Assembly (NCBI GenBank): GCA_034520885.1
Contig: JAXHNE010000009.1
Location: forward strand, 130,431 to 194,430
Direction of reading: 5' to 3'
Length of the DNA stretch: 64,000 nt
Source of the DNA: Candidatus Saccharimonadota bacterium
Lineage (GTDB): Bacteria; Patescibacteriota; Saccharimonadia; Saccharimonadales; JAXHNE01
The translations under genes and the position numbers were made by a program. The notes under the pieces are model-generated. The model was not told where the DNA came from, made no database searches, and worked only from the letters and a program-made list of their open reading frames with translations. Every line of letters starts with the position of its first letter. The stretch's first letter is position 1. Positions 38,916 to 64,000 of the stretch are shown here, one piece after another.

Positions 38916-38951
38916 TCATGCTTGTGTTTATTCGAAAGCATGGTAAAAGTA

Positions 38952-41273: not shown

Positions 41274-41338
41274 GGCATTCGTCGTTGCTGACGGTTGAGA
41301 AAGTGTATTTCTCGTGAACTGCACATCCCTGGCAGATG

Positions 41339-41366
41339 TCAACACCCCGGTGTTGATGTTTGTTTG
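41339..41366 (+). terminator. Rho-independent terminator after the lipoprotein gene
   Basis: TCAACAC-CCCG-GTGTTGA followed by TGTTTGTTTG. Confidence 0.5.
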
Positions 41367-41844
41367 TCTCTTAAGGGATAAAACGAGAAAGGCTGCAGCT
41401 GGATACGCCTTGTTTGGACGGCAACGTCTTAACAAAACCAGCACGGGACTTTGTGTTTAGAGAAGCTTGTAGGCCTTATTTCGCCTCGCTTTTCGTTGAT
41501 AGTGACACCGCGCGTGTAGATTTTAATTGTTTGATTTGATCGCTTGCGATCACCTCACGAGCTCTTCAGAGCACATTAAAATCTACACCGCAAACCCCAT
41601 TTATATGAATTGTAATGATCTGAGTTTGCGACTCTCCAACAAGATCGTTCTTTAACAACTGAATAAGCACAACCATAATATTGACAAATAGTAATGCTTG
41701 TGATAAAGTAATTTTGAACTGAGGTGGCTCCATGCTGAGCATACGGTTTATGTACTTTAACAACCAAGTTTCAATCTGTAGCCATCATGTAACTATAACA
41801 ATGTTTTTAATTATAATGAGGTGGGAGCGAGAAGGAGGTGATTT

Positions 41845-43389: not shown

Positions 43390-43757
43390 ACAGTAGCCTT
43401 AGAGAGACGCGCCGGCCCGCCTGCTTCGGCAGAAGTCGAACACGACTGTGCCAACAACAGGGTAGTAGCTTCAAGAAGCTTACTGCCCTGCCTGCGCAAC
43501 ATCGTAAATCCTGATAATGAGTAGTCTGTAATCAGATTATGAGTTATCAAGATTTACGATTGTTGTGGATAAACTCTGGCGCTTACGCGAAAAATCTGGT
43601 ACAGTGAGCGCTAACGAGTCTTAAGCATTGACTGACCGCTTAGGAAACGAAAACATCGTAGAAATACCCTGCAACGTGCGGGGTATTTCTTTTTCGCCTC
43701 TGTTATGCTATGATAATTTGCGAGCTAAATGCTATAAGCTTTAAGCTAAAAGCTAAA

Positions 43758-43945: not shown

Positions 43946-44020
43946 GGTCCCATCGTCTAATGGTTAGGACATCAGGTTTTCATCCTGAAAATAGGGGTTC
44001 GATTCCCCTTGGGATCACCA
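43946..44020 (+). tRNA. tRNA-Glu (anticodon TTC), CCA encoded
   Basis: Acceptor GGTCCCA/TGGGATC, anticodon arm TCAGG-TTTTCAT-CCTGA, T arm AGGGG-TTCGATT-CCCCT, ACCA. Confidence 0.9.
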
Positions 44021-44027
44021 CGTTAAG

Positions 44028-44050
44028 CACCCACGTTATGTGGGTGTTTT
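44028..44050 (+). terminator. Terminator after tRNA-Glu
   Basis: CACCCAC-GTTAT-GTGGGTG followed by TTTT. Confidence 0.6.
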
Positions 44051-44146
44051 GCGTGGTGACGGACCCCAAGAGCAAGCCAAATGTTTGACCCCCACCCCCA
44101 CCCTAGACTAAAATCATAAGCAGTAAATAGGGATCAAAAACGAAAA

Positions 44147-45256
44147 ATGCCCAGACTACCAGTACCTGGAGGCGACACCGGCAATTGGGGAGATATCCTC
44201 AATGACTATCTTTCGGTTTCCCTGGCTTCTAACGGCTCCCTAAAACCCGGCATCCCCCAATCCAAAATAACCAACCTAACGGACGACATTGCCGACAAAT
44301 ACACCAAGCCAAGTTCCGGCATACCCAAGTCCGATCTAACCAGTGATGTACAAACCAGCCTGGACAGCGCTGATTCGGCTTTGCAGCCTGGAGGCGGCTC
44401 TCCCGCAGCGAATGAGTACGCCCGGTTCACCGGCGCCGACACGGTCGAAGGCCGTTCGGCCGCGCAGGTACGGTCCGACCTAAATATCGAGGACGGCGCG
44501 ACCGCCGATCAAACCAACGCCGAGATCGAAACCGCCTACAACGCCCAGGTGTCGGCAGCGTCACAGGCCGAAGCCGAAGCCGGAACGGAGACAGCAGACC
44601 GCCGCTGGTCACCGCTGCGAGTTCGGGAGGCGGCTGCATCGTACACCGATGACGAGGTCGCCGCTCTGCCCGCGCTCGAAAACAGCGACGACATCAATGT
44701 CGACGACTCGGTCCCGACAACCCTGACCCTGGCCACCAAGCGAGCGCCCCGGGTGTTCGCTGGCACGTCCGCCTACCTGCTGTCGACGTTCAACGACGAC
44801 GCCACCGAGACGACGCTGCTCAACTCCACCGCCGACATTCCGGCCAACACACTGTCGCTGGGGGATCTGGTGCGGATCACCGCCATCGGCACCGTTACTA
44901 ACAACACCGGCTCGAACCGGGACGTCACCCTGCGGATCAAGCTGGAGGGCACGACCCTGCTCACCTTCGCTTTCACCAGCCTGGCGACGAGCGCCAACGG
45001 CCGGACGTGGACGATCGACGCCATAGGCACCATCTACACGTTATTTGGCGACGGCTATTCGGTCGGCGCGAAAGGCTTGCTCGGTGCGGCGGGCGGCGGT
45101 GTTGTCGACACGAACCTTCTGGTTGCGGGCAACCAGACTATCGACCGCGGGAACGAACTTAACTTCGACATTACCGCCCAGCATTCGTTCGCCTCGACCG
45201 ACCTAACGACGACGCTGCGTGGCTTCACCGTCGAGCAGCTCCCCACGCCGGCATGA
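44147..45256 (+). CDS. Phage tail-fibre-like protein (high-GC block)
   Basis: 369 aa. The N-terminus MPRLPVPGGDTGNWGDILNDYL and repeats of the type SKITNLTDDIADKY / IPKSDLTSDVQTSL / TNAEIETAYNAQV / RRWSPLRV resemble phage tail-fibre and minor-tail proteins. GC rises from ~54% in the first 250 nt to the mid-60s afterwards. Confidence 0.5.
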   Translation: MPRLPVPGGDTGNWGDILNDYLSVSLASNGSLKPGIPQSKITNLTDDIADKYTKPSSGIPKSDLTSDVQTSLDSADSALQPGGGSPAANEYARFTGADTVEGRSAAQVRSDLNIEDGATADQTNAEIETAYNAQVSAASQAEAEAGTETADRRWSPLRVREAAASYTDDEVAALPALENSDDINVDDSVPTTLTLATKRAPRVFAGTSAYLLSTFNDDATETTLLNSTADIPANTLSLGDLVRITAIGTVTNNTGSNRDVTLRIKLEGTTLLTFAFTSLATSANGRTWTIDAIGTIYTLFGDGYSVGAKGLLGAAGGGVVDTNLLVAGNQTIDRGNELNFDITAQHSFASTDLTTTLRGFTVEQLPTPA

Positions 45257-45882
45257 GTGCGGTAGCGGCTCGTGCGCCCGGCTCGCTGACCGTCGTCGTA
45301 TTCGAGGGCCAGAGCCTCAACCTGCGGTCGTCGATGCTGTTCGGGGTCGACCCGTGGCCGTACCGGCTCATGGCCGGTCGGGGCCTGCCGTGGGCGACCG
45401 TCGCCCTGGACAACGCGTCGTGGACCGACCTGCTCACCGGCACCGACGCCGCAGCCGGCCAGCCGTCCAGCACCCGGCTCCACCCGATCGCCCAGGTGTC
45501 CTCCGCTGCCAAGAAAATCCTCGTCCTGTGCGGCGGCCAGACCGACCTCAACGGCGAAGGGGACAGTGGAACCCAGGTCTTCGCCGACCTCGTCGCCAAT
45601 GCCCAGGCGGCCCGCACCGCCGGCTTCACTCACGTGATCGCCACCACCATCCCCGGCTCATCGACCTACGATAGCGGGGAGGAAATCGCCCGGAATGACC
45701 ACAACACGCTCCTTCTCGCCGACGCGGGTGGCGACTTCGACGGGGTTGTCGACCTCACCGTCACGAGCCTCGATACCCACAACGACACCGACTTCTGGGA
45801 CGTGATTCACCTCAGCGCGATCGGTGCCGACAAGCTCGCTGACGCCGCTGACCCTGTTCTCGACACCGTCCTCGCCGCATGA
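45253..45882 (+). CDS. SGNH/GDSL-type esterase (sialate-O-acetylesterase-like)
   Basis: 209 aa. The block I variant VVFEGQSLNL (GQS in place of GDS), a GG block LVLCGGQTDL, and the C-terminal D..H block DVIHLS. ATGA overlap with the upstream gene. Confidence 0.5.
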   Translation: MSAVAARAPGSLTVVVFEGQSLNLRSSMLFGVDPWPYRLMAGRGLPWATVALDNASWTDLLTGTDAAAGQPSSTRLHPIAQVSSAAKKILVLCGGQTDLNGEGDSGTQVFADLVANAQAARTAGFTHVIATTIPGSSTYDSGEEIARNDHNTLLLADAGGDFDGVVDLTVTSLDTHNDTDFWDVIHLSAIGADKLADAADPVLDTVLAA

Positions 45883-46111
45883 TCGCCCGCCTCGTCTGTC
45901 CACTCGACCTTCACGACCGCTACCACTACTACGTTGAGAACCCCTAAGACGCGGCGGGCACGCGAAGCTTTTTCGTCAGAAAAACATTCGTGAGTCGAAT
46001 TCCTCCCAGGGAAGTCTTTCGGTTTGCGGGTTGAATTTCCCCGTATCGCCGACTCTCCGTCTTGACACTTCCCCTAACTGGTATAATGGAGTCAGTAACG
46101 AAGGAGGATGT

Positions 46112-46420
46112 ATGTTTAAAGTACGAGACGCGCTTATCGGGCTGATTAATTTGGTTGTGGTGGCCAGTTGGTCGCTTTTGGGGCTCAGGTTCATTTTACG
46201 ACTGTTTTCGGCCAACGAGGCCAACGGGTTCGTAGAATGGGTGTATCGAACTTCCGGAGAAGTACTGGCACCATTTCGGGGGATTTTCCCGGATTCACAG
46301 CTAGAGGGCTTTACGTTCGACTTCACGGCGCTATTCGCCATGATGGTGTACGGCTTAATCGCGCTGCTTGCCATCTACTTGGTAAACCTTCTCTCGCCGG
46401 TATCCCCAAAGAAGAGATAA
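46112..46420 (+). CDS. yggT: YggT-family membrane protein
   Basis: 102 aa from MFKVRD, preceded by AAGGAGG and TGGTATAAT (46079-46087). The pattern LRFILRLFSAN...FV.WVY..S..LL.PFRGIFP is YggT-like. Confidence 0.7.
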   Translation: MFKVRDALIGLINLVVVASWSLLGLRFILRLFSANEANGFVEWVYRTSGEVLAPFRGIFPDSQLEGFTFDFTALFAMMVYGLIALLAIYLVNLLSPVSPKKR

Positions 46421-46645
46421 TCTTCCACGATTTTCGCAAGGAAATGCTTGCGCTTATCTGATATACCGCTACACTAAAACGGTAATGGCTAGAACTCATT
46501 TCAAAGCCCACTTTCTATTACAAAGCGCGGCTGGAGCGCTGGATTGTCGCTTTGTTTCGCGGCGCATGTTTAAATGCGCCTTGTCGCAAGAACAACAATC
46601 CCCCGTCACCAGGACGCACTTTTCACGAACGAAAAGGACTTTAAT

Positions 46646-48082
46646 ATGAGTTCTGTGACACGTAAAGCGCCCGACGTGGCGATCGAAGATTTCAAACGTA
46701 CCAAGATTATCGCCACCACCGGACCGGCGAGCGATTCGTACGAGCTTATAAAAGAACTGATCGTTGCCGGAGCGAACGGACTGCGCCTTAACTTTAGCCA
46801 TGGCGATCACGAGGAGCATCTACAGCGAATTACCCGGATACGCCGGGCCTCCAAAGAACTGAGTAAGCCGGTGGCTATCATCCAGGATTTACAGGGGCCG
46901 AAGATTCGCTTGGGCGACTTTGAGGGCATTATTAACGTAAAGGCCGGGCAAAGCTTGCAATTGGCCTATAACGTAGCTTACGAGGAAAACGGGCCGGTGC
47001 CCGTGCAGTACGATATTTCCAAAAAAGTAAAGCGCGGCGAGCGCCTATTTATATTCGACGGCAAAGTGCGCACCACGGTCACCAGCGTAAAAAACGGCGT
47101 GGTGCATGCCCGCGTGGAAAATGACGGAATATTAATCAAACGCAAAGGCATTAATTTGCCCGATACGGATTTTGAGGGCGATATTCTGACCAAAAAAGAC
47201 AAACAAGACGTGGTTTTCGGCGTAAAACACGAAGTCGACTTTATGGCGCTCAGCTTCGTGCAAACGCCCGACGACATTAGAAAGCTGCGGCATATCTTGC
47301 GCAACCAAGGAGCCAAAACCAAAATCATTGCCAAAATTGAGACCAACGCGGCCATTGAAAACCTGGAACCCATAATTCAGGAGGCGGACGCGGTGATGGT
47401 CGCTCGCGGCGACTTGGCAATTGAAACTTCGCCGGAATCCGTGCCCGTGGTACAGCGTAAGATCATCGGCCTGGGCTTGCGTTATGGAAAACCGTCCATC
47501 GTGGCCACGCAAATGCTCGCGAGTATGTCGGAATTTCCCGAGCCGACACGTGCCGAGGTGTCCGACGTAGCTACCGCGGCAATCGTCGGGGCGGACGCTA
47601 CTATGCTCTCCGAAGAAACCGCCGCCGGAAAGTATCCGGTGGAAGCGGTACGCACCATGAAAAAGGTGATTTTGTACGCCCAATCCAACGCGCCCTTACA
47701 GGTATTATTCCCGCAGTTCAACGACAATACCCGCCAAAACGCCATCTCCCAGGCGATTATTACGCTCGCGGATAACGTGGCGGCCAAAGCCATCGTCGCC
47801 GAAACCAAGTCCGGAGCAACCGCCATTAACATCAGCTCACGCCGTGTCGGTCTTCCGATTATCGCGGTCACCCCGGATAATCGTGTGGCCCAAGCGTTGG
47901 CCATCGTGTACGGCGTAAAAAGCTACATCCGGCCGGATGATCCCCGCGCGGCGACAAAACTCACGAACTGGTTGCACAAGAACAAACTTTTTAAAAAGGG
48001 CGATATGGTGATCACGGCCTCCGGGCAGTATCCCGGAGTGGTGGGAACGACTGATACAATAAAAGTACGCGTAATACGGTAG
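46646..48082 (+). CDS. pyk: Pyruvate kinase
   Basis: Start at MSSVTRK. TKIIATTGPAS, LRLNFSHGDHEEH, MVARGDLAIE and LSEETAAGKYP. Confidence 0.92.
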   Translation: MSSVTRKAPDVAIEDFKRTKIIATTGPASDSYELIKELIVAGANGLRLNFSHGDHEEHLQRITRIRRASKELSKPVAIIQDLQGPKIRLGDFEGIINVKAGQSLQLAYNVAYEENGPVPVQYDISKKVKRGERLFIFDGKVRTTVTSVKNGVVHARVENDGILIKRKGINLPDTDFEGDILTKKDKQDVVFGVKHEVDFMALSFVQTPDDIRKLRHILRNQGAKTKIIAKIETNAAIENLEPIIQEADAVMVARGDLAIETSPESVPVVQRKIIGLGLRYGKPSIVATQMLASMSEFPEPTRAEVSDVATAAIVGADATMLSEETAAGKYPVEAVRTMKKVILYAQSNAPLQVLFPQFNDNTRQNAISQAIITLADNVAAKAIVAETKSGATAINISSRRVGLPIIAVTPDNRVAQALAIVYGVKSYIRPDDPRAATKLTNWLHKNKLFKKGDMVITASGQYPGVVGTTDTIKVRVIR

Positions 48083-48096
48083 GAGCGTAAAAAGCG

Positions 48097-49389
48097 GTGG
48101 GATTTCACAAAAAAACAATCAAAGACATCGATCTTTCGGGCAAAACCGTTTTGCTGCGTGCCGATTACAACGTTCCGCTGGAGGGCGGAAAAATTACCAG
48201 CGATTATCGTATTGAGCAATCACTTGCTACGGTAAAATACTTGATAGAACAAAACTGCAAGGTGGTGATTTGCTCCCACTTGGGGCGGCCGAAAGATGCC
48301 AATGATTCGCAGTACTCCCTGAAACCCGTTGCCAAGCGCCTGGGGGAATTACTCGGGCAAGATGTGCAATTTTTGGAAGCGTGTGTCGGCGACACGGTAA
48401 AACGCGCGGTAAAAGAGCTGGAGCACGGAAGCGTATTGCTACTGGAAAATCTTCGTTTTCACCCGGAAGAAGAAGCCAACGATGAAGCGTTCGGCAAGCA
48501 ATTGGTGGAATGGGCGGACGTGTTCGTACAAGACGCGTTCGGGGTAGTGCACCGCGCCCACGCTTCAACTGACGTTGCCGCACAAAACTCCTTTGGCGTG
48601 GCGGGGTTATTATTGGAAAACGAGATCAAAACGATTACGTCGGCCATTGAAACGCCCCAAAGGCCACTAGTGACAATTATCGGCGGGGCGAAAATTAGTG
48701 ACAAAATTGGAATTTTGAAGCGTTTCGTGGAAATAGCCGACGTCGTGGCGGTAGGCGGAGCCATGGCCAATACCTTTTTATTGGCCAAAGGCATTGATGT
48801 TGGAGAAAGCATGGTGGAAGAGGACGACGTGGACATCGCCAAAGAAATTATGGAACGCGCCAAAGAGCGTTCCGCGAAGGAGGACTTCGTATTTTACGTG
48901 CCGCAAGACGGGGTGGTCGCCCGCGAAATTGACGCCAAAACTAAAACCCGCATCGTGGATTGGGACGCGCACGTGATTGCCGATATTGAAAGTTACCCCA
49001 AGCGGGTAAGTAAAAGCTCCACGACCATCGAAAACGGCGAAATGATTTTGGATATCGGTCCGTTTTCCGGGGCGTTCATTGCCGGCTGTTTGCAATTGGC
49101 GGAAACGGTCATTTGGAACGGTGGCATGGGGATTACCGAACAAAAAGGCTTACAGGGGCCGATCGGGCCGTTCGCTCACGGAACGGACTTAATCATGGAC
49201 GCCATGCTCGGCGTGCACGGCAATAAACCTTACACCTTGGTAGGCGGCGGCGATACGGTCGGGTTCGTGGAATCCGAAGGCCTGTTAAAAAGCTTCGGCC
49301 ACGTGTCTACCGGCGGCGGAGCGAGTTTGGAGCTAATGAGCGGAAAATTGCTGCCGGGCGTGGAAGCTCTCGAAGATAAAGACGGATAA
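48097..49389 (+). CDS. pgk: Phosphoglycerate kinase
   Basis: 430 aa with a GTG start. VLLRADYNVPL, SHLGRPK, IIGGAKISDKI and STGGGASLE. Confidence 0.95.
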   Translation: MGFHKKTIKDIDLSGKTVLLRADYNVPLEGGKITSDYRIEQSLATVKYLIEQNCKVVICSHLGRPKDANDSQYSLKPVAKRLGELLGQDVQFLEACVGDTVKRAVKELEHGSVLLLENLRFHPEEEANDEAFGKQLVEWADVFVQDAFGVVHRAHASTDVAAQNSFGVAGLLLENEIKTITSAIETPQRPLVTIIGGAKISDKIGILKRFVEIADVVAVGGAMANTFLLAKGIDVGESMVEEDDVDIAKEIMERAKERSAKEDFVFYVPQDGVVAREIDAKTKTRIVDWDAHVIADIESYPKRVSKSSTTIENGEMILDIGPFSGAFIAGCLQLAETVIWNGGMGITEQKGLQGPIGPFAHGTDLIMDAMLGVHGNKPYTLVGGGDTVGFVESEGLLKSFGHVSTGGGASLELMSGKLLPGVEALEDKDG

Positions 49390-49494
49390 ATGGTATACTA
49401 AACGTAAGCATTATGAGTACCGTTAGAAATTACATAAAACAGAGATCAGCGCAGCTTCGAAATACTCACTTTATAGCAGAGGATTTTTAGCTAT

Positions 49495-50286
49495 ATGCGT
49501 AAAAAAATAATTGTCGGTAACTGGAAAATGCATCTGAATACGTCACAGGCGAGTTTACTTTTGCATCGCCTGCACGAACGTATCAAAATTCACCGTGACG
49601 TCGAAGTAGTGTTGGCGCCCAATACGTTAGTTTTACAACCGCTGTCCATGCAACTTGATCGCCGTAAATTCCGGCTGGCGGCTCAAAACGCCCACTATAA
49701 AGACGAAGGCGCCTACACCGGTGAGGTCAGTTTTACCATGTTACGTGACTTGGTGCATTACGTCATAATCGGCCATTCCGAACGCCGGCATATCTTCGGC
49801 GAATCCTTGGATACGGTACGTGATAAAGTAGCGGCTTGCGTGCGCAACGACATATCACCGATCGTTTGTGTCGGCGAAACCAAAACCGAACGCCTGGACG
49901 GTGAAACCAAGCAGGTCATTCACGACCAAGTAACTACCGCGTTGAGCGGTCTTACCTCAGAGGACATCAAACGCACCGTGATCGCCTACGAACCGGTATG
50001 GGCGATAAGTAGCGGCGGAGATTACAAAAACCATGAGGTCGCCAAACCGGATGACGTACAAAAAATTACCGGGCAAATTCGGGATATCGTAGCTGATCTG
50101 TACGGGAAAAAGGCTTCCGAAACCGTGCGCTTACTGTACGGAGGAAGCTCGAATGCCGAAAATGCACGGTCGTATCTGGAAGTCGAAGGAATCGACGGAT
50201 TGCTTCCGGGAGGAGCCAGCTTGGATTACCACGCTTTTTCCAGTATGGTAGCCACGGCATTCAGCATGACTCACGAAAGAGAGTAG
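49495..50286 (+). CDS. tpiA: Triosephosphate isomerase
   Basis: 263 aa. VGNWKMH, IIGHSERR, AYEPVWAI and YGGS. Confidence 0.92.
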   Translation: MRKKIIVGNWKMHLNTSQASLLLHRLHERIKIHRDVEVVLAPNTLVLQPLSMQLDRRKFRLAAQNAHYKDEGAYTGEVSFTMLRDLVHYVIIGHSERRHIFGESLDTVRDKVAACVRNDISPIVCVGETKTERLDGETKQVIHDQVTTALSGLTSEDIKRTVIAYEPVWAISSGGDYKNHEVAKPDDVQKITGQIRDIVADLYGKKASETVRLLYGGSSNAENARSYLEVEGIDGLLPGGASLDYHAFSSMVATAFSMTHERE

Positions 50287-50287
50287 T

Positions 50288-50983
50288 ATGGCGGACGAGA
50301 GTAAAAACACCGAAAAGAAAAAAATCGTTGATGACGTCACCAAACCCGGGGAAACACCGGCGAACGCTACTTCCCGTCCGGTTATCGTGAAGCATCGTTC
50401 GGTTATGAAAGATCCGATGATGGCCGAGCCGAACCCTTCACAAATGGACGAAAAAGAGGGGTCTTCGGCCGACAAAACCGACAAAACCGAGGAAGACAAA
50501 GACGACCCCGTGAGCCGAAAAGCACCCAAGCTGCAGCCGAGTCCCGATGTAAGTGCCACCGAGAAATCCGATACTCCCGAGGAAAACGAAAACGAAAACG
50601 AAAACGAAAAAGAAAAAGAAAACGAAAACGAAAAAGCCTCCTCCCCACAAGAAAAACCGCCGGAAGACAAAGAAGCGCCGACGGAAGACAATGGTCGGGA
50701 AACCGGAGAAAATAATAGTGGAACCGGTGCGGTGGACGTATTGGCCAGTGAAGCCGTAAAAGGCAAAAAAGATAGTAAAGAGCAGCGTGAAAAACGGGAA
50801 GCGATTGAAAAACACATCGAGGAAAAAACCTATTTCGCCCCGATCGGGCGGATCAGCAAACGCCGCGCAAAAATCCGCATTATTTTGTTCATTCTGTTTT
50901 TAATAGCGTTAGCCGGAGGCTATTTGGCAATTGACGCCGAAGTAATAGATCTCGGTATAGAGTTGCCGCTAGATATACTGTAG
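50288..50983 (+). CDS. Acidic low-complexity protein with a C-terminal TM anchor
   Basis: 231 aa. It contains the ENENENENEKEKENENEK run, encoded by nine GAAAA(C/A) hexamers at 50582-50635, and a TM helix IILFILFLIALAGGYLAI. Confidence 0.5.
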   Translation: MADESKNTEKKKIVDDVTKPGETPANATSRPVIVKHRSVMKDPMMAEPNPSQMDEKEGSSADKTDKTEEDKDDPVSRKAPKLQPSPDVSATEKSDTPEENENENENEKEKENENEKASSPQEKPPEDKEAPTEDNGRETGENNSGTGAVDVLASEAVKGKKDSKEQREKREAIEKHIEEKTYFAPIGRISKRRAKIRIILFILFLIALAGGYLAIDAEVIDLGIELPLDIL

Positions 50984-56117: not shown

Positions 56118-56153
56118 TACCACAAACATGTCCGATCGGACATGTTTGTGGTA
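56118..56153. repeat. 36-bp perfect palindrome, copy 2 of the element at 3279-3314
   Basis: TACCACAAACATGTCCGATCGGACATGTTTGTGGTA, located 33 nt after the stop of the PPC gene. Confidence 0.85.
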
Positions 56154-56215
56154 ATCTTGGATTTTTTGTAGGTTTTTTCGTGTTTGTCGGGGCGTTGTTT
56201 TGCTACACTTGCTAA

Positions 56216-56719
56216 ATGAGCACCACAAAACGACAAACTTTCACGCAAAAATGGGCTGTCGCCTCCTTTTTTGGTGATTTGCCGGCAGGGTTTGAATTCC
56301 ATAAAACGAATACGCCCCTTCACGCCACTTTGGCGGGGGTTTTCTCAATTAATCTTAACGGCCAATCAATAGCTGACATACTGAGTAAACACCTAAAAGA
56401 TGCGAACCCGTTCAGTATCAAAGGCGAACAAATCGAACAATGGGGAGAAATAAGCGTGACTACCATTAAAGATTCCGCAGCGTTTAATTCATTGTACAAA
56501 GGCGTGCAAAATGTCTTGCTTAAAAACGGGGCAGCGTTTAACGAGCCACAGTACCTAGCCGACGGTTTTTGCCCTCATGTTACGGTTCAAAAAAGTGAAA
56601 AACTGCAACCGGGAGAAAAGGCGATAATAGACAGGGTAAGTTTGGTCGATATGTTCCCAAATAACGATGGAACTCGCAGGCGAATCACCACGACCTTTAA
56701 ACTAAAAAACTATGATTGA
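56216..56719 (+). CDS. 2H phosphoesterase-superfamily protein (LigT-like)
   Basis: 167 aa with two H-x-T-x motifs (LHATLAG and PHVTVQK) at the expected spacing. Confidence 0.55.
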   Translation: MSTTKRQTFTQKWAVASFFGDLPAGFEFHKTNTPLHATLAGVFSINLNGQSIADILSKHLKDANPFSIKGEQIEQWGEISVTTIKDSAAFNSLYKGVQNVLLKNGAAFNEPQYLADGFCPHVTVQKSEKLQPGEKAIIDRVSLVDMFPNNDGTRRRITTTFKLKNYD

Positions 56720-57479
56720 ACCAAATAAATCGCTTGGTCAACATTGGTTGGCTGACAAAAATGTACTACAGCAAATCGTTGACGCGGCTAATATTACGCC
56801 AGAAGACGAAGTGGTGGAAATCGGCCCGGGTACGGGCACGCTTACCAGGGCGCTTATTGACAATGGTGCGCACGTTACCGCCGTAGAGTTTGACCGAAAT
56901 TTAGTAGATCGCCTACAAGCTGAGTTTCCCGAAGCGCGGGTCGTACGATCGGATATACTGTCGTTCGATCTTTCGCGCATGAAGACTCCTTACAAAATAG
57001 TCGCCAATATACCGTACTACCTTACGAGCAAGTTAATACGCCTACTAAGTGAATCGGCTAATCCGCCTGAGCGAGCCGTATTATTAATCCAAAAAGAGGT
57101 CGCTCAGCGCGTGGCGGCCGCCCCGGGCGATATGTCGCTTTTAGGTGTGAGTGCGCAGTATTATTGGGAGGTATCGCTTGGAATTGAAGTACCCGCCAAA
57201 TTATTTACGCCGCCGCCAAAAGTCGACTCCCAAGTGGTGATTTTAAATAAACGACAGCAGCCACCATTCGGAAAGATCGACGAAAAAAAGTTTTTCCGTA
57301 TCGTCAAAGCGGGGTTTAGTAATCGCCGTAAAACCCTGCTTAATTCATTAAGTGCCGGGTTGCACTTAAGTAAAGAAAACACCCGGCAACCGCTGGAAAA
57401 CGCGGGAATAAAACCGAGCTCTCGCGCGCAAGAGTTATCACTGGAGCAGTGGCACACCCTTTATAAAAACTTTGCTTAA
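56712..57479 (+). CDS. rsmA: 16S rRNA (adenine1518/1519-N6)-dimethyltransferase
   Basis: 255 aa. LGQHWL, the SAM motif VVEIGPGTGTLT, and NIPYYLTS. Confidence 0.9.
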   Translation: MIEPNKSLGQHWLADKNVLQQIVDAANITPEDEVVEIGPGTGTLTRALIDNGAHVTAVEFDRNLVDRLQAEFPEARVVRSDILSFDLSRMKTPYKIVANIPYYLTSKLIRLLSESANPPERAVLLIQKEVAQRVAAAPGDMSLLGVSAQYYWEVSLGIEVPAKLFTPPPKVDSQVVILNKRQQPPFGKIDEKKFFRIVKAGFSNRRKTLLNSLSAGLHLSKENTRQPLENAGIKPSSRAQELSLEQWHTLYKNFA

Positions 57480-57537
57480 AATATCCATAAGTGGTATAAT
57501 TCAGCCAAGCCACGAATGAGTGGTGAGTGATACATAT

Positions 57538-57942
57538 GGGGCTGACTTTAAGCTCGACGTTGGACGTTAACAAGTTAGATCAGCAGGCCGCTTACTCAGC
57601 GTTATAGGGTAACTCAAACTAGATGCAAATTTCGTATCTAAAGCAAAAGCCGGCTTCCAGAATGCTGCTTACGCACTTTTTGGTCAACCAGCTGAAGCTA
57701 CAGCAGTAGCTTAACAGCATACTGCCGCTACGATTTTGACTCCTGATAGAAATCCGTAGTGCCATATTTTTCAGGGTGCCGATTCGTGAGCGGTTCATAA
57801 CGAATCATAAGACTAATGAACCACCTCGTTCGCTATTTTGATTGTTTTAACGCGAAACGAGTACACCCAAACAATCTAAGCCTGTAGGACAGACTAACTT
57901 ATAACCCTTCGGACGCGGGTGCGATTCCCGCCAGCTCCACCA
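57538..57942 (+). ncRNA. ssrA: tmRNA (SsrA)
   Basis: The 5' end is GGGGCTGACTTTAAGCTCGACG and the 3' end is GGACGCGGGTGCGATTCCCGCCAGCTCCACCA (tRNA-Ala-like, G3-U70). A candidate tag frame from GCA 57643 reads AKAGFQNAAYALFGQPAEATAVA, ending at the TAA stop at 57712-57714. Confidence 0.9.
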
Positions 57943-58346
57943 GACTTCGCGCAAGGCTTCGTCTGGCAAGCCATTTCGTAAAACGTTACTTAGAAAACGG
58001 CTTATTTTATAGTATTAGGGACTCGTGCCTGCCAGCTCCACCAGACTTCGCGCAAGGCTTCGTCTGGCAAGCCATTTCGTAAAACGTTACTTAGAAAACG
58101 GCTTATTTTATAGTATTAGGGACTCGTGCCTGCCAGCTCCACCAGACTTCGCGCAAGGCTTCGTCTGGCAAGCCATTTCGTAAAACGTTCCTTAGAAAAC
58201 GGCTTATTTTATAGTATTAGGGACTCGTGCCCGCCAGCTCCACCAGACTTCGCGCAAGGCTTCGTCTGGCAAGCCATTTCGTAAAACGTTACTTAGAAAA
58301 CGGCTTATTTTATAGTATTAGGGACTCGTGCCTGCCAGCTCCACCA
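57943..58346 (+). repeat. Four tandem 101-bp units, each ending in the ssrA 3' terminus
   Basis: Unit ends fall at 58043, 58144, 58245 and 58346. Each unit ends in (C/T)GCCAGCTCCACCA. The units are nearly identical, with single substitutions in unit 3. Confidence 0.92.
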
Positions 58347-58411
58347 AAAATACATCAATCCGCGTTGGTGTTTTTTGTTCGCTTAATAACTATCATTGTA
58401 TAATTTTGGCA

Positions 58412-59443
58412 ATGGCGCTAAAAAACTGGTTTATTGCCAACAAGCATAACAAATTTCACCCGATGGCCTTGCGCCCTGTAGGGTTGGCTATATTCTTTTC
58501 GCTGATTTTAGCAATTAACCCGCTGTATAATTATGTCTCTGCAGGCAAAGTCCAAGTACTTGGCTATGCGACCAATATAAGTGTTAGCGGTCTGCACAAT
58601 CTGACGAACCAGGAAAGAGCTCAGCGCGGACTGCAACCACTGTCGCTTAATTCCACGCTTAACAGTGCCGCGAGCTCTAAGGCAAACCACATGTTCGCTA
58701 ATAACTACTGGGCGCATACCGCGCCTGATGGCACGCAGTTTTCATATTTTGTAACTTCCGCTGGGTATAATTATGCCTCCGCCGGCGAGAATCTGGCCAA
58801 GAATTTTTCGACCTCTGCCGGTGTGATGTCCGGTTGGATGGGCAGCAGCGGTCACAAACAAAACGTTTTGGGGAATTATAAAGACGTTGGTTTTGCTGTC
58901 GTAAACGGTAACTTATTGGGTGAAGACACGACGCTGGTCGTTGCTATGTATGGGTCTAAACAAGTATCGCCAGCCGCCCCACAACCCCAGCCAAAACCGA
59001 AACCCTCATCACAACCTTCTTCACCAACGCCGCAACCCCAGAACACACAATCAGAACCGGAACCTGAACCAGAAGAGCCAGCGCCGGAGGAAGAAAACGA
59101 AGAAAATGCCCAGCAAGAAACAAACAATCAGAATAATGAAGACGAAGAGGAAGCGGTCGAAGCTATTCAGCCAACCAACGGCGATGAAGACGGCGAGGTG
59201 CTGGCATCCTACAACATTAATCCAGTAGATATGTACAACACCTTTAACTGGGGGCAAAAGGCTACCATGTTCTTGCTTTGTGCAATGATACTTCTAAATG
59301 TGATGAAACACACGCTTATATGGCGGGAACAACGGCGCGGGTTGAGGCATATATGGTTGCGCTCGCATCCGCTGGCGCAAGCCTTCGTACTGATATTCGC
59401 CAGTATCATAACCATAACCAGCAGTATCGGTGTTATTAAATGA
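58412..59443 (+). CDS. CAP/SCP (YkwD-like) domain protein with a Pro/Glu-rich linker and C-terminal TM helices
   Basis: Start at MALKNWF; the track start at 58328 lies inside the last ssrA repeat unit. CAP blocks LTNQERAQRGLQPLSLNSTL, NYWAHT, GENLA and GHKQNVL. TGTATAAT at 58396-58403 lies only ~8 nt from the ATG, so the mRNA may be leaderless. Confidence 0.72.
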   Translation: MALKNWFIANKHNKFHPMALRPVGLAIFFSLILAINPLYNYVSAGKVQVLGYATNISVSGLHNLTNQERAQRGLQPLSLNSTLNSAASSKANHMFANNYWAHTAPDGTQFSYFVTSAGYNYASAGENLAKNFSTSAGVMSGWMGSSGHKQNVLGNYKDVGFAVVNGNLLGEDTTLVVAMYGSKQVSPAAPQPQPKPKPSSQPSSPTPQPQNTQSEPEPEPEEPAPEEENEENAQQETNNQNNEDEEEAVEAIQPTNGDEDGEVLASYNINPVDMYNTFNWGQKATMFLLCAMILLNVMKHTLIWREQRRGLRHIWLRSHPLAQAFVLIFASIITITSSIGVIK

Positions 59444-59688
59444 GACGACATCATTACAAAAATCAAAAATTACATACACTTTACAACCTAGTGCTTCTTG
59501 GCGCGTTAATTGCCGTTTTCTCTGTCGAGACAACCATCGACGCTTGGCTTTTAGTGGGTCTCGCAATCTTTTACGTCGGAGGAAATGGATTTATACATTG
59601 GCATAAAAGCGAACTAAAGCGCGACACAATCATTGAATACCTACTAGTCGCGCTAATCGTATTAGTGGTCGCATACGGAGCAATCTAG
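59440..59688 (+). CDS. Small membrane protein
   Basis: 82 aa with three hydrophobic helices. It overlaps the upstream gene by 4 nt. Confidence 0.45.
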   Translation: MRRHHYKNQKLHTLYNLVLLGALIAVFSVETTIDAWLLVGLAIFYVGGNGFIHWHKSELKRDTIIEYLLVALIVLVVAYGAI

Positions 59689-59803
59689 AGTAAACGAATA
59701 AGCATAAGTACAATACAATAAATTTGACACACTGTATAAGTAGTACTAGTGTATTAGTTAGTAGTGGGGATTTTATAAATAATCACCTATAAAGGAGATA
59801 TTA

Positions 59804-60808
59804 ATGATAAATATTAAAAGATTGTCGGCGATAGCGTTGGTGGTACCGCTAGTTATTGCTAGTTTTGCAACAATAATGAGTGTTGGTGGTGGTTCTCAGG
59901 CATTAGCCGATCAGCCTACAAATTTGCATTGCCCAAACCACGAAACAGAAATCAAAGTAGAAACTTCAGGAAGCCCTCAAACAGCAGATGAAACCGTTAC
60001 TATAGACGGACAAAGTGTTCGTGTAAACGTAACAGGTGAAGAAGTAAAATTTTTCGACAGCAGTAACGAATTAATTAAGGTAAAGTTTTGCGTGAAAGGT
60101 GGCAATGAGCTTCCAAATTCTGGTGAAAAACAAGCAAAACAATATACGCACCCTCAAGAAATAAGTTATGTTGTTGTGTATAGGGTCGTTGAAGAGCAAG
60201 AGGACGACAAGCCCGAAGCTGAAGTAACAATCATAAAAGATGTTGTAGACGGTGAAGACGAGGAAAAGTTCGAGTTTTATGCCGGTGCAAAAAACCTAGA
60301 AACTGGTGAGATTGATTACTCTGCCTGGGGTCCATTTATGCTAGATGATTATTCAAGAACAGACACACCGAACCAAGTGCATGTGCCGAATGTAGGTTTA
60401 CATACATCAAATGTATTTACTGTTACTGAGAAATTTGTTGATGGATGGAATGTAGATATTAAATGCATGAACCTAGAAGATGCTGTATCAGAATGGGAAG
60501 CAGGCCTTATCGGTAATGACCACGTAGTTACGCTAACCCTAGTAGAAGATTCACACATTCAGTGTACTTTCGAAAACGAAAAAGTTACTGAAGATGAGGA
60601 AGAAAAGCCAACAGAGAATGGTGATGTACTTGGTGACAAAACCAATAAAGATACAGGCGAAACACTCGGTACGCAAGTAGACGCACCAGTCGGAGCTGTT
60701 GATGCCGGTGTAGGCGCAACGGGATTTGCTGTGAGCTCAATCCTGGGACTTGCTGGATCTATCTCTGCTCTTGGATACGGAGCCTTACGTTTTGGTAAAA
60801 GCGAGTAA
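59804..60808 (+). CDS. Secreted surface protein with a C-terminal hydrophobic anchor (non-LPXTG sorting-signal-like tail)
   Basis: 334 aa. Signal peptide, acidic linker, and a C-terminus VDAGVGATGFAVSSILGLAGSISALGYGALRFGKSE (hydrophobic helix plus basic tail). It lies immediately upstream of a sortase gene. Confidence 0.55.
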   Translation: MINIKRLSAIALVVPLVIASFATIMSVGGGSQALADQPTNLHCPNHETEIKVETSGSPQTADETVTIDGQSVRVNVTGEEVKFFDSSNELIKVKFCVKGGNELPNSGEKQAKQYTHPQEISYVVVYRVVEEQEDDKPEAEVTIIKDVVDGEDEEKFEFYAGAKNLETGEIDYSAWGPFMLDDYSRTDTPNQVHVPNVGLHTSNVFTVTEKFVDGWNVDIKCMNLEDAVSEWEAGLIGNDHVVTLTLVEDSHIQCTFENEKVTEDEEEKPTENGDVLGDKTNKDTGETLGTQVDAPVGAVDAGVGATGFAVSSILGLAGSISALGYGALRFGKSE

Positions 60809-60833
60809 AGCCTAGGTAATAGGGCAAAATAAG

Positions 60834-61352
60834 GTGAGTAAGACAACACCAAAAAAACAAGCAAAAAAGCGGCAGCAAAATAAGCTGCCGCTTTCGGGTT
60901 CCGCAGGTAAAAAGGGCAAAGCCAAAAGTGCTACAAGCAAAACCAATAAATCTGGCAATCATAAAAGGCGAAGCCCGAGAACAAAAACGTACAACTTGTG
61001 GCTGGGCTCACGCCGCAGTCTTGAGCTAAAGTTTAAGCTCAAAACCAAAAAGAAAAAGCGGTTGACCAAAAAACAGCAACTGGCTCGAAAGAAGCTAAGG
61101 CAAAAAATGCTTGCTTCGGCAATGATAGTGATTGGGCTCGTTGGGCTTTTCTATTTTTCCGCCAATTTAACCGGCCAACGAAATCCACCGGAAATTTACT
61201 CGCCGCCAACTCCGGAAGTTGTTGAGTCTGAGCCGGTTGAAGAAGAGCCCGCAGGGGGCATGACTGCTTCAGCCCCAACAACTTTAAGTATTCCTGACGT
61301 AGATATTAATACTTCTCTCATTACGCTTGGGCGCAATCAGGATGGAACTATG
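60834..61352 (+). pseudogene. Sortase gene, N-terminal third only (basic tail, TM helix, first beta strands), truncated at a compositional breakpoint
   Basis: GTG start, K/R-rich N-terminus, TM helix MIVIGLVGLFYF, then TTLSIPDVDINTSLITLGRNQDGTM. This parallels LVINKLGIDTRVTRLG of the 4860 paralogue. The His and Cys catalytic regions are absent. Confidence 0.6.
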
Positions 61353-63692
61353 AGGATCTTCCTCCCGTTCAACAAAGGCCACGAGAAGGGCGGCGGCAAC
61401 CCCCCGCGGGAGGACGACCACCGGACCGCCTACCTCTGGAAGGAGGTCTGGGCGAAGGACAGCTGGATGGACATCATCCAGCGGTTCATCCACATCGACA
61501 CCGAGGAGATCAAGAAGGACGGCGTCACCGTCGAGGAAGACGAGACGCTGATCTTCCCGCGATATCACCAACTCGAATGCGTCCGAAAGCTGGTCGACAG
61601 CGCGAAACGCGAGGGCTCCGGCGAGGACTACCTCATCCAGCACTCCACCGGGAGCGGGAAGAGCAAGTCCATCGCGTGGCTCGTCCACCGACTCGTCTCG
61701 CTCCACGACGCCAACGACGAGGCGGTCTTCGACGGCGTCGTCGTCGTCACCGACCGCACGATACTGGACGAACAGCTCCGGAACACGATCTACGAACTCG
61801 ACCACAAGACGGGCGTCGTCCACCCGATCACCGGCGAGCACGGTCCGAAGTCGGAGGAACTCGCCGAGGCGCTCGAAGCCGGCAAGCCGGTCATCATCAC
61901 GACGCTCCAGACGTTCCCGTACGTCATCGAACACACGCAGTCGCTCCCGGAACGGGACTACGCCGTCGTCGTCGACGAGGCACACAGCAGCCAGACCGGG
62001 GAGATGTCCGCCGAGATGAAGGGGATCCTCTCCGGGATCGACGAAGACGAGATCGACGACGCCGAGGACGCCATCGTCGCCAACGCGGAAGCCCGGAGCA
62101 AACAGCCGAACCTCAGCTTCTTCGCGTTCACGGCGACGCCGAAGGCGAAGACGCTCCAGATGTTCGGCGAGCCCGACGGCGAGGGCGGCTACGAGCCCTT
62201 CCACCTCTACTCGATGCAGCAGGCCATCGACGAGGGATTCATCCTCGACGTGCTCCAGAACTACACGACCTACGAGACGTTCTACAACGTCGCGAAGGTC
62301 GTCGAGGAGGACCCGCAGGTCCCCGAAAAGAAGGCCGTGAAGGCCATCTCTCGGTTCCTGAAACTCCACCCGCACAACGTCTCACAGAAGGTCGAGATCA
62401 TCGTCGAGCACTTCCGGAACAACACGCAGCACAAGATCGGCGGCAAGGCGAAGGCCATGATCGTCACCTCGTCGCGCGCTCACGCCGTCCGATACAAGAA
62501 GGCCATCGACGAGTACATCGAGGAGAACGGATACGACCTGAGCGCGCTCGTGGCGTTCTCGGGAACCGTCGAAGACGACGGACAGAGCTACACCGAGGAG
62601 GGGATGAACGACGGGATCAAGGAGTCCGAACTCCCGAACGCCTTCGACAGCCAAGCGTACCAGGTCCTCGTCGTCGCCGACAAGTACCAGACCGGCTTCG
62701 ATCAGCCGCTCCTCCACACGATGTACGTGGACAAGAAGCTCTCCGGGATTCAGGCGGTCCAGACGCTTTCCCGTCTGAACCGCACACATCCCGGAAAGGA
62801 GGACACGTTCGTCCTCGACTTCGAGAACGAGCAGTCGGAGATCAAGGAGGCGTTCGAGCCGTTCTACGGGAAGACGACCGTCACGGAGGAGACCGACCCG
62901 CAACACCTCCAGCAGCTCGCGAGCGAACTGAAAGCGTTCCGTATCTACGACCAGAGCGACGTGGACCGATTCGCGGAGGTCTTCTTCGATCCCGAAAACA
63001 CCGGGACAGAGGGCTCACACGCGAAACTGAGTAGTTTGGTACAGCCAGCTCGTGACGAGTTCATGGTCTCGAACGAGGAGACGCAGGAGGAGTTCCGGTC
63101 GACGCTCCGCTCGTTCCTCCGGCTCTACAAGTTCCAGTCGCAGATCGTCAGCTACGCCGATACGCACCTCGAAAAGCTGTACACGTTCGGTCGGTTCCTC
63201 TACAAGGAGCTCCCGAAGGGCTCGGGCCAGCCCAGCGTCGAGTTCGACGACGAACTCGCGCTTCAGTACTACCGGCTCGAAAAGTCGGAGGAGGGAGACA
63301 TCGAACTCGACACGACCGACGGAGAGGTCGAGGGACCGACAGAGACCGGAACTGGTGGCGGAAGTGACGACGATGAAGTCGAACTCTCCACCATCGTCGA
63401 GAAAATCAACGAGAAGCTCGGGACCGATTTCACCGAGGCCGACCAGCTGTTCCTCGAACAGCTGAAGGAGGACGCGCTGGAAGACGATCACCTACGCAGG
63501 TCCGCGAAGGTCAATAGTCGCGAGAACTTCGCTCTGGAGTTCGACAGTGCGCTCACCGAGATGTTCATCGACCGAATGGACCAGAACGAAGAGTTGTTCG
63601 CCGAGTTCATGGACAACGACGAAGTTCAGGAAGTGATCACGGAGCATCTCCGCCAGCAGGTGTATCAAGAAAGCCAGCAAGCCGAAAGCTGA
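61353..63692 (+). CDS. hsdR: Type I restriction enzyme R subunit, lacking its N-terminal nuclease domain; in frame with the sortase fragment (track ORF 60834-63692)
   Basis: RIFLPFNKGHEKGGGNPP...HRTAYLWKEVW, helicase motif I HSTGSGKSKS, motif II VVVDEAHSSQ, TATP, and motif VI QTLSRLNRTHPGK. The protein is very Asp/Glu-rich with GC3-rich codons (GAC, GAG, CTC, GTC, ACG), and is haloarchaeal-looking. Confidence 0.8.
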   Translation, partial: RIFLPFNKGHEKGGGNPPREDDHRTAYLWKEVWAKDSWMDIIQRFIHIDTEEIKKDGVTVEEDETLIFPRYHQLECVRKLVDSAKREGSGEDYLIQHSTGSGKSKSIAWLVHRLVSLHDANDEAVFDGVVVVTDRTILDEQLRNTIYELDHKTGVVHPITGEHGPKSEELAEALEAGKPVIITTLQTFPYVIEHTQSLPERDYAVVVDEAHSSQTGEMSAEMKGILSGIDEDEIDDAEDAIVANAEARSKQPNLSFFAFTATPKAKTLQMFGEPDGEGGYEPFHLYSMQQAIDEGFILDVLQNYTTYETFYNVAKVVEEDPQVPEKKAVKAISRFLKLHPHNVSQKVEIIVEHFRNNTQHKIGGKAKAMIVTSSRAHAVRYKKAIDEYIEENGYDLSALVAFSGTVEDDGQSYTEEGMNDGIKESELPNAFDSQAYQVLVVADKYQTGFDQPLLHTMYVDKKLSGIQAVQTLSRLNRTHPGKEDTFVLDFENEQSEIKEAFEPFYGKTTVTEETDPQHLQQLASELKAFRIYDQSDVDRFAEVFFDPENTGTEGSHAKLSSLVQPARDEFMVSNEETQEEFRSTLRSFLRLYKFQSQIVSYADTHLEKLYTFGRFLYKELPKGSGQPSVEFDDELALQYYRLEKSEEGDIELDTTDGEVEGPTETGTGGGSDDDEVELSTIVEKINEKLGTDFTEADQLFLEQLKEDALEDDHLRRSAKVNSRENFALEFDSALTEMFIDRMDQNEELFAEFMDNDEVQEVITEHLRQQVYQESQQAES

Positions 63693-63727
63693 AGCTGACC
63701 GGACTATCGCCAGAGCTTTCCGAACGT

Positions 63728-63760
63728 TTTCCTAATAGGAATCGTATGCCTATTAGGAAA
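63728..63760. promoter_or_regulatory. Perfect 12-bp inverted repeat (terminator or operator)
   Basis: TTTCCTAATAGG, a 9-nt spacer, then CCTATTAGGAAA. It lies between the hsdR stop and the next gene. Confidence 0.5.
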
Positions 63761-63821
63761 CAGTCGATCTGATAGGGTTGCCATATCCGTTTCCGGAGAT
63801 TGGTATTCCCGATACCAGGCG

Positions 63822-64000
63822 ATGCAGGATGTTCTCGATGTTCTCATCGACCAGCCGTATGCGACGTACTCGATGAGCGAACTCGCAAGCCTCACGGGAG
63901 CGAATAAGGGAACGATCTCAAAGGCGGTCAAACTGCTTTCCGAGCTCGATATCGTCGAGACCGCACCGGACGGGCGGACCCAGCAGGTCCAGATCAACCG
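63822..64000 (+). CDS. Winged-helix transcription regulator, N-terminal part (runs off window end)
   Basis: My translation from ATG 63822: MQDVLDVLIDQPYATYSMSELASLTGANKGTISKAVKLLSELDIVETAPDGRTQQVQIN... This is an HTH plus wing pattern common in haloarchaeal small regulators. The antisense track ORF 63704-63997 is discounted. Confidence 0.55.
   Translation, partial: MQDVLDVLIDQPYATYSMSELASLTGANKGTISKAVKLLSELDIVETAPDGRTQQVQIN

Follow-up and report, generated by a model that had tools for sequence, protein, structure and literature searches.

In the haloarchaeal genera Halorubrum and Halobellus, type I restriction genes form hsdM-hsdS-hsdR operons that lie on integrase-flanked islands (H. ezzemoulense GCA_028211185.1; Halobellus rufus BBJO01000024.1). 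At all three haloarchaeal loci examined, hsdM and hsdS are immediately upstream of hsdR, and the three genes are collinear across the point equivalent to the break described below. The break therefore does not correspond to a mobile-element boundary. Class F sortases (NF033748) of the type found here have their named relatives in Candidatus Saccharimonadales, Saccharibacteria and Microgenomates. An intact 290-aa member is encoded on Logan contig SRR26473340_80862, with a score of 177.4 bits on the NF033748 class_F_sortase model (cut-off 166) and the Pfam Sortase domain (PF04203) at residues 151–289. A further relative is the wHTH-nucleotidyltransferase gene of the Halorubrum plasmid pCBA1229 (WP_123115208.1), whose 195-aa product is annotated as a ‘nucleotidyltransferase domain-containing protein’. 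Collections of MAGs and SAGs are also well known to contain chimeric contigs and bins (PMC8201837, PMC11247762).

Within the window, the whole 64,000-nt stretch of DNA analysed here, a class F sortase gene runs directly into an hsdR gene of Halorubrum type. The break point is at 61352|61353, with approximately 61.3 kb of bacterial DNA to its left and approximately 2.6 kb of archaeal DNA (2.65 kb counted from the break to the window end) to its right. The features around it are the following.

59804..60808, + strand: gene for a SpaA-like secreted protein, native to the CPR bacterium, 334 aa (Pfam SpaA_4 at 28.5 bits, cut-off 27.3)
60834..61352, + strand: 5’ part of a class F sortase gene, 519 nt or 173 codons, 100% identical to Logan contig SRR26473340_80862
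61353..61358, + strand: six junction bases, AGGATC (codons R-I), a clean fit to neither parent
61359..63692, + strand: 3’ part of a Halorubrum-type hsdR, 2331 nt plus stop codon, residues 210–986 of a 986-aa type I R subunit
63728-63760, no strand: perfect 12-bp inverted repeat with a 9-nt spacer between hsdR and the wHTH gene, TTTCCTAATAGG at 63728-63739 and CCTATTAGGAAA at 63749-63760
63822..64000, + strand: 5’ end of a haloarchaeal, putative wHTH-nucleotidyltransferase gene, 59 codons (MarR_2 at 27.4 bits, cut-off 27)

The bacterial and haloarchaeal parts of the locus

The first 173 residues of the sortase are identical to those of the intact 290-aa enzyme on the Logan contig, where an identical SpaA-like protein is likewise encoded directly upstream. 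This 334-aa protein contains a SpaA-like prealbumin-fold domain and, as read from the translation, ends in ..VGATG followed by a hydrophobic stretch and RFGKSE. Such a C-terminus resembles a cell-wall sorting signal, and the protein is likely a sortase substrate. The sortase stump retains the Lys-rich N-terminus, the membrane anchor, the linker and approximately 23 residues of the 139-residue catalytic domain. By inspection, the anchor consists of the hydrophobic segment MLASAMIVIGLVGLFYF with the conserved G..G..YF..N pattern common to its relatives. Alignment with intact relatives places the end of the stump before the catalytic His (GHVDS) and Cys (LITCGG) motifs, and the 173-aa stump matched no Pfam or NCBIfam model, those for sortases included. 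The original prediction of half a sortase therefore holds for overall length (173 of 290 residues) but not for the catalytic domain, of which little remains. On these matches, the left side is CPR (Patescibacteria) DNA from an ultra-small bacterium of Saccharimonadia type.

The right side opens within hsdR. The best matches of the fragment are to Halorubrum and Halobellus proteins at 95–97% amino acid identity, as had been expected of a protein search if this side were of haloarchaeal origin, and all named HsdR matches above 66% identity are haloarchaeal. Identity reaches 95% (amino acid) and 90% (nucleotide) with H. ezzemoulense and 96% (amino acid) with Halobellus rufus, and the alignment to both homologues is collinear and free of gaps from residue 210 through the stop codon. 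There are 236 nucleotide differences from the H. ezzemoulense gene, 190 of them at third codon positions, and the codon changes comprise 174 synonymous and 43 non-synonymous. This predominance of third-position and synonymous change indicates that the divergence accumulated under purifying selection. The archaeal part shares the acidic, GC3-rich composition of its homologues, with a D+E/K+R ratio of 2.0 versus 1.0 in bacterial core genes.

The domain content of the fragment agrees with an R subunit that has lost its N-terminal nuclease domain of some 200 aa while the rest is intact, as was originally proposed. Pfam analysis of the ORF that contains it identified SWI2_SNF2 (2e-24), ResIII (2e-14) and DEAD (1e-10) domains, and a T1R_D3-like domain with a score of 42.2 bits (cut-off 27). 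The helicase motifs GSGKS, DEAH, FTATP and QTLSRLNR are all present in the translation, so that the SF2 motor is intact, and the C-terminal domain is likewise present. In contrast to the homologues, the first 209 residues are missing: the HSDR_N nuclease domain (PF04313; PD-(D/E)xK), carried by all full-length homologues, has no Pfam match in the 952-aa ORF, and alignment to TIGR00348 starts at profile position 215, compared with position 35 for a full-length homologue. The fragment scores 167.6 bits on this model and the full-length H. ezzemoulense HsdR 191.9 bits, both under a cut-off of 284.55 that does not discriminate in this haloarchaeal clade. The expected absence of hsdM and hsdS was also confirmed, as neither lies upstream in the window, where bacterial genes (CAP-domain, SpaA-like, sortase) take the place that they hold in the haloarchaeal operons.

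The perfect 12-bp inverted repeat that had been noted from the letters is present downstream of hsdR, where it probably serves the wHTH gene that follows as an operator or promoter element. Similarity to Halorubrum plasmids begins at or just before the repeat (window 63708 and 63728). It extends over the repeat and the first 59 codons of the gene at 87% nucleotide identity to plasmids of Halorubrum sp. CBA1229 and H. salinarum, and the closest match of the encoded MarR_2-like wHTH N-terminus, at 92% amino acid identity, is an HTH protein from Halorubrum sp. SP3. In pCBA1229 the gene upstream is cdc6, whereas in the window it is hsdR. The earlier description of a small, haloarchaeal wHTH gene was right as to type and origin but not as to size, the open frame being the 5’ end of a longer, putative wHTH-nucleotidyltransferase gene whose annotated homologue on the Halorubrum plasmid encodes approximately 195 aa. 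The gene is cut by the end of the window, and its nucleotidyltransferase part would lie past base 64000.

The closest donor relatives found overall were at 90% nucleotide and 95–97% amino acid identity, and no exact donor sequence was recovered. A 69-nt hsdR string had no match in genome contigs, and the inverted-repeat string had none in metagenome or viral contigs. Megablast against phages returned no match, while against plasmids the hsdR part reached at most 83% identity and the downstream part 87%. Taken on sequence likeness, the right side is ordinary haloarchaeal DNA of Halorubrum type.

Composition, reading frame and bases at the break

The sharp compositional jump predicted at about 61345-61355 was located at 61352|61353. 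In 200-nt windows, GC rises from 0.45–0.50 to 0.61–0.66 between 61100 and 61600. Inside the ORF that crosses the break, GC changes from 0.459 to 0.609 (46% to 61%), GC3 from 0.439 to 0.875 (0.44 to 0.875 when rounded) and the share of D+E from 6% to 20%. A third-order Markov likelihood change-point test, for which independent loci served to train the haloarchaeal model, gave a plateau at 61337-61360. Both partner genes are cut mid-domain at a single point, as had been claimed.

The in-frame fusion ORF of 952 aa was also found as described (60834..63692, + strand), reading ..LGRNQDGTM|RIFLPFNKGHEKGGGN.. across the break. Continuation in frame has a chance of approximately 1 in 6 by random abutment, considering strand and frame only, and by itself is no evidence of biology. 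The archaeal fragment would simply have chanced on the same strand and the same frame to give a 952-aa ‘sortase-HsdR’ ORF. No exact match to the fusion product is on record, and a 36-nt string across the junction had no match in genome, metagenome or viral contig collections. None of the 120 best HsdR matches carries a sortase domain, and no protein longer than approximately 370 aa was found among the sortase matches retrieved. The ‘sortase-HsdR’ fusion is almost certainly not a real gene. Its product would be functionless: the catalytic residues of the sortase and the nuclease domain of HsdR are gone, and HsdM and HsdS are missing as partners.

Bacterial identity ends at 61352 and recognizable archaeal sequence starts between 61355 and 61359, with no overlap between the two. 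At 61353..61358, where the window has AGGATC, the bacterial Logan contig reads GAGGTT and the haloarchaeal loci read ACCAAC or ACGAAC. The encoded Arg at position -2 before the motif FLPFN is Thr in all of the approximately 100 motif-carrying HsdR homologues retrieved. BLAST extends either parent a few bases into AGGATC, only with a gap or mismatches. Comparison of 50 nt on each side of the break showed a longest exact match between the parents of 6 nt. The sequence near the junction contains neither repeats nor an att site, a target duplication, an IS or an integrase; the far side of the archaeal segment lies beyond the window. Six bases that fit neither parent are not what a simple concatenation of two clean contigs would give. 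Filler bases of this kind occur in real illegitimate recombination and also in ligation or template-switch chimeras.

Several specific origins of the junction were rejected. A restriction-ligation or Hi-C chimera formed via the GATC at the junction is excluded as the bacterial parent has no GATC there. An adapter or linker remnant is unlikely in view of the common adapter sequences, and the string TTCCTCCCGTTC, which has a loose likeness to one, is native haloarchaeal coding sequence. The break also does not coincide with the frameshift that divides hsdR of Halobellus rufus into calls of 273 and 747 aa, since these two calls overlap at L006 10001-10103, a stretch that begins approximately 95 nt downstream of L006 9908, the equivalent point.

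Independent contigs and the origin of the join

Logan contigs from the independent assembly of run SRR26473340 allowed the break to be compared directly. Contig SRR26473340_80862 is 100% identical to window 58317-61352 and diverges exactly at the break, where it reads through into the rest of the intact sortase and approximately 9.4 kb of further bacterial genes at 49–53% GC, including those for GSDH, trehalase, NUDIX, a tRNA synthetase and TatD. The intact sortase allele is therefore dominant in this run, although a minority variant could coexist. All other composition shifts in the window are spanned by single Logan contigs of the same run at 100% identity, and only 61352|61353 is contradicted by them. 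Control contigs cover window 31845-43749 (L010), 43962-50448 (L005) and 56126-57956 (L004). The foreign-looking high-GC islands at 39.4–41.3 kb and 44.1–45.9 kb, the latter adjoining a tRNA-Glu, were reproduced in these contigs, and false joins were thereby ruled out for the other GC-rich islands. No direct repeats of the tRNA-Glu 3’ end were found flanking the 44–46 kb island.

Given the read-through into an intact sortase, the structure at 61352|61353 is very probably an artefactual blunt join of Saccharimonadia-type and Halorubrum-type DNA rather than a biological structure, in agreement with the original prediction that a chimeric join, from assembly or construction, is the simplest explanation. 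The technical route is one that we infer: most likely, two separate contigs or records would have been concatenated blunt, through a contaminated bin, a scaffold without spacer or data handling. The second most likely route would be a chimeric DNA molecule or read, produced by ligation or template switch and carried into the assembly. In either case the archaeal piece begins in the middle of hsdR and runs into the next gene.

A graph-based mis-assembly, in which the assembler walks from a bacterial into a haloarchaeal contig via a shared repeat or k-mer, would accord with the chimeric contigs and bins documented for MAGs and SAGs (PMC8201837, PMC11247762). It is nevertheless extremely unlikely here. 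The longest exact match shared by the parents is far under any assembler k, and their recognizable sequences are separated (61352 versus 61355-61359) rather than overlapping. In addition, none of the 5.8 billion protein clusters from Logan, from which the matching bacterial contigs also come, exceeds 90% identity to the archaeal HsdR over its full extent, a search that short fragments could escape.

The alternative of a real and very recent acquisition of Halorubrum DNA by the CPR bacterium, perhaps by uptake of DNA from the environment and microhomology-free illegitimate end joining, and now either fixed or a minority variant, was also weighed. A fragment of a Halorubrum mobile island would be the source, and its insertion would have left the class F sortase inactive and given rise to a cross-domain fusion ORF. 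The six unassignable bases resemble filler DNA at non-homologous joins, and the verified foreign-looking islands elsewhere in the window indicate that the bacterial genome is not refractory to gene acquisition. Saccharibacteria are also reported to be naturally competent. Against such a transfer, the sortase is intact and there is no branch at the junction in the independent Logan assembly of the run that matches the window. The archaeal DNA is wholly unameliorated at its GC3 of 0.875, and its divergence from relatives is overwhelmingly synonymous. The bacterial core proteome has no salt-in acid shift (ratio 1.00), so that co-residence with an extreme halophile is unsupported, and this cell would probably not allow a halophilic protein to fold. 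Only a single boundary is seen, and no second instance was found in any collection searched. The recent archaeon-to-CPR transfer offered as the original alternative thus gained no positive support and, with the intact sortase in the independent assembly, is very unlikely. If true, it would capture raw archaeon-to-CPR transfer of DNA ahead of any amelioration.

Consequences and comparison with chimeric records

Taken at face value, the record describes a cross-domain gene fusion and a recent transfer from a haloarchaeon to a CPR bacterium, and under the artefactual join both readings would be wrong. The final 2.65 kb of the window, together with anything that follows in the parent record, should be taken out of this bacterial genome and regarded as Halorubrum-type contamination, and the region should be masked wherever the record enters analyses of HGT, defence systems or pangenomes. 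For such cases, Logan contigs of the same run provide a read-free check, separating the real islands (39–41 kb and 44–46 kb) from false joins.

The locus resembles the chimeric contigs and contaminated bins of MAG and SAG collections that are the object of GUNC-type detection. Lineage, composition and codon usage all switch at one point, both genes are truncated and an independent assembly disagrees with the record. Assembler chimeras typically run through a repeat common to both parents, whereas here there is none and six unassignable bases stand between the parents, which speaks for a blunt concatenation or for a chimeric molecule.

A reading frame spanning a composition break

Three features of the window's last few kilobases are considered here:

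60834..63692 (+), 952-aa open reading frame, reading ..TLGRNQDGTM|RIFLPFNKGHEKGGGN.. across the break at 61352|61353
63728-63739 and 63749-63760, arms of a perfect 12-bp inverted repeat
59804-60808, gene for a SpaA-like surface protein

In 200-nt windows, GC was 0.37-0.50 at 59.5-61.2 kb compared with 0.58-0.66 at 61.4-63.3 kb. Within the reading frame, the portion up to 61352 had a GC of 0.459, a GC3 of 0.439 and 6% Asp+Glu, against 0.609, 0.875 and 20% from 61353, and both the abrupt GC/GC3 jump and the in-frame 952-aa fusion of the original prediction were recovered. A likelihood change-point analysis, using 3rd-order Markov models trained on the window's first 60 kb and on independent haloarchaeal loci, gave a plateau at 61337-61360. 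Pfam found SF2 motor (SWI2_SNF2, ResIII, DEAD) and T1R_D3-like domains to the right of the break, and neither HSDR_N nor a sortase domain in the 952 residues. In-frame read-through requires only the right strand and frame, a chance of about 1 in 6.

The bacterial and haloarchaeal parents

As far as base 61352 the DNA is bacterial, with seven tRNAs and one tmRNA. All proteins given an exact look-up matched only Logan contigs of run SRR26473340, four of which align as follows.

Logan contigs of run SRR26473340 aligned to the window
L010, window 31845-43749, 100% identity
L005, window 43962-50448, 100% identity
L004, window 56126-57956, 100% identity
L001, window 58317-61352, 100% identity

On L001 the gene starting at 60834 encodes an intact 290-aa protein above the NCBIfam class F sortase cut-off (177.4 vs 166 bits), with a Pfam Sortase domain at residues 151-289 and named relatives among class F sortases of Candidatus Saccharimonadales, Saccharibacteria and Microgenomates. 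L001 extends a further 9.4 kb past its base 3036, through glucose/sorbosone dehydrogenase-like, trehalase, NUDIX, class I tRNA synthetase, TatD and other genes, at a GC of 49-53% that matches the remainder of the bacterial genome. The predicted half-sortase was thus correctly identified as a sortase, but the window holds 173 of the 290 residues (Lys-rich N-terminus, membrane anchor, linker and only ~23 domain residues), stopping ahead of the conserved GHVDS and LITCGG motifs. The SpaA-like protein encoded directly upstream of the sortase ends in VGATG, a hydrophobic stretch and RFGKSE, resembling a sorting signal whose motif is non-canonical; judged by sequence, it is a candidate class F sortase substrate in this lineage.

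From 61353, 779 residues match haloarchaeal HsdR proteins, with 95% identity to a 986-aa Halorubrum ezzemoulense protein, 94-95% to two more clusters, one including H. pallidum, and 96-97% to a Halobellus rufus protein; identity falls off steadily across other Halobacteria. These homologues bear out the haloarchaeal origin that had been proposed. Nucleotide identity over 61358-63686 was 90% to the H. ezzemoulense locus, the nearest match found, and 87% to the Halobellus locus; the exact archaeal donor sequence was not found. The window Phe at 61359 corresponds to HsdR residue 210, and 209 N-terminal residues are therefore missing, HSDR_N among them, as the predicted truncation implied; the TIGR00348 alignment starts at profile position 215 in the fragment vs 35 in the full-length protein. 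Compared with H. ezzemoulense, 190 of 236 nucleotide differences fell at third codon positions, with 174 synonymous and 43 non-synonymous codon changes; hsdR therefore diverged under purifying selection, like a working haloarchaeal gene. Each of the three haloarchaeal loci examined has hsdM and hsdS directly before hsdR, and collinearity extends through the position that matches the break, so the break is not a mobile-element end.

The hsdM-hsdS-hsdR operon is common to H. ezzemoulense and Halobellus rufus at 87-90% nucleotide identity to the window fragment, with a SeqA-like gene upstream in all three loci (L002, L003 and L006). The Halobellus operon sits between phage-integrase genes, a setting that hints at a mobile island passed between haloarchaeal genera. 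A frameshift splits the Halobellus rufus hsdR into 273 and 747 aa.

Downstream, the inverted repeat is present as predicted; together with the next gene's first 59 codons, it shows 87% identity to Halorubrum sp. CBA1229 and H. salinarum plasmids. The repeat (window 63728-63760; L009 4001-4100) falls inside the stretch conserved with Halorubrum plasmids. The gene's product and a Halorubrum sp. SP3 protein share 92% identity. The winged-helix and haloarchaeal assignments of this gene stand, but the window has only the beginning of a longer gene, which its end cuts: the homologue on the plasmid pCBA1229 is recorded as a 195-aa 'nucleotidyltransferase domain-containing protein' and has the wHTH at its N-terminus. 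On pCBA1229 an overlapping 162-aa ORF follows, an order that would match an MNT/HEPN-type toxin-antitoxin pair under an autoregulatory operator.

Other islands and repeats

Three other strong composition shifts occur in the window, each covered at 100% identity by a single independent SRR26473340 contig. The stretch at 32000-38000 (33-40% GC, confirmed by L010) encodes a 422-aa protein with only the Arg-tRNA-synthetase N-terminal domain, an aldehyde dehydrogenase, a 7TM histidine kinase and two unannotated ORFs. The island at 39400-41350 (60-68% GC), real given its full coverage by L010, holds a 447-aa ORF (39930-41273) that is acidic, Pro/Thr-rich and secreted-lipoprotein-like, with no family match except a weak PHROG of unknown function. 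The third, at 44147-45882 (66-70% GC in a ~48% GC genome), lies directly 3' of tRNA-Glu(ttc) (43946-44020) and is likewise real, L005 covering it and both flanks. Its two ORFs (369 and 209 aa) had no Pfam or NCBIfam match, and no att-like repeat or integrase was found for it. Over its first 75-110 residues, the 369-aa ORF is similar to minor tail/collagen-like proteins from phages of Streptomyces, Gordonia and Curtobacterium (E 4e-11, ~50% identity), and a Saccharimonadia-type epibiont may have acquired the island from an actinobacterium or actinophage.

A 101-bp tandem repeat (57930-58346; 4.1 copies, 98% match) starts at the 3' end of the tmRNA gene (57538-57942). The same short ORF (MPASSTRLRARLRLASHFVKR..) is opened by every copy, the last copy leading into a CAP-domain gene, and Logan contigs are interrupted there (L004 ends at 57956, L001 starts at 58317).

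Origin of the join

The decisive contrast is internal. The other shifts are spanned by independent contigs, and only the 61352 junction is contradicted, L001 being identical up to that base and then running straight into the intact sortase. This supports the chimeric join favoured originally; the sortase-HsdR fusion in itself is not genuine.

Perfect identity to the bacterial parent ends at 61352, the G of ATG, past which the parent reads GAGGTTCCAG and the window AGGATCTTCC. Archaeal sequence is recognisable from TTCCTCCCG (61359), possibly a few bases earlier. The window has AGG ATC (Arg-Ile) where homologues have Thr-Asn/His/Arg/Tyr, and since the Thr is kept in all of the ~100 retrieved HsdR homologues with the motif, the six junction bases are not plausibly native archaeal; a match to the bacterial parent requires a 1-nt deletion. 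Neither a direct nor an inverted repeat occurs at the break, nor does an att-like site, an IS or an integrase. A repeat-mediated graph mis-join is unlikely given that the parents have no k-mer in common, the longest exact string within 50 nt either side being 6 nt. Concatenation or spacer-free scaffolding of separate contigs, or a chimeric molecule or read, fits better, with two unrelated sequences, bacterial and haloarchaeal, abutted as a non-biological blunt join. Such a join is favoured by the unameliorated archaeal segment with its signature of purifying selection, by both genes being broken mid-domain, and by the lack of any match to the fusion product or junction in every collection searched. 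Such chimeras are a well-documented feature of MAGs and SAGs (PMC8201837, PMC11247762).

The six unassignable bases could stem from contig-end errors, from a ligation/template-switch chimera or from real non-homologous end joining, as in a real minority variant carrying the junction. We consider such a variant very improbable. The purifying-selection pattern of the hsdR segment would not be seen in a truncated bacterial relic. The D+E/K+R ratio, 1.00 in bacterial core proteins vs 2.0 in the archaeal fragment, indicates no salt-in adaptation in the bacterium, which would weaken the case for a habitat common to it and a haloarchaeon. The value of recognising the join at 61352 is that contamination in the source record is flagged.

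Compared with known systems, the window stump does not qualify as a class F sortase on its catalytic domain, nor the fragment as an HsdR on its nuclease domain and M/S partnership. The component genes are all of known kinds, encoding a class F sortase, an HsdR of haloarchaeal type and a wHTH-nucleotidyltransferase, likewise haloarchaeal.
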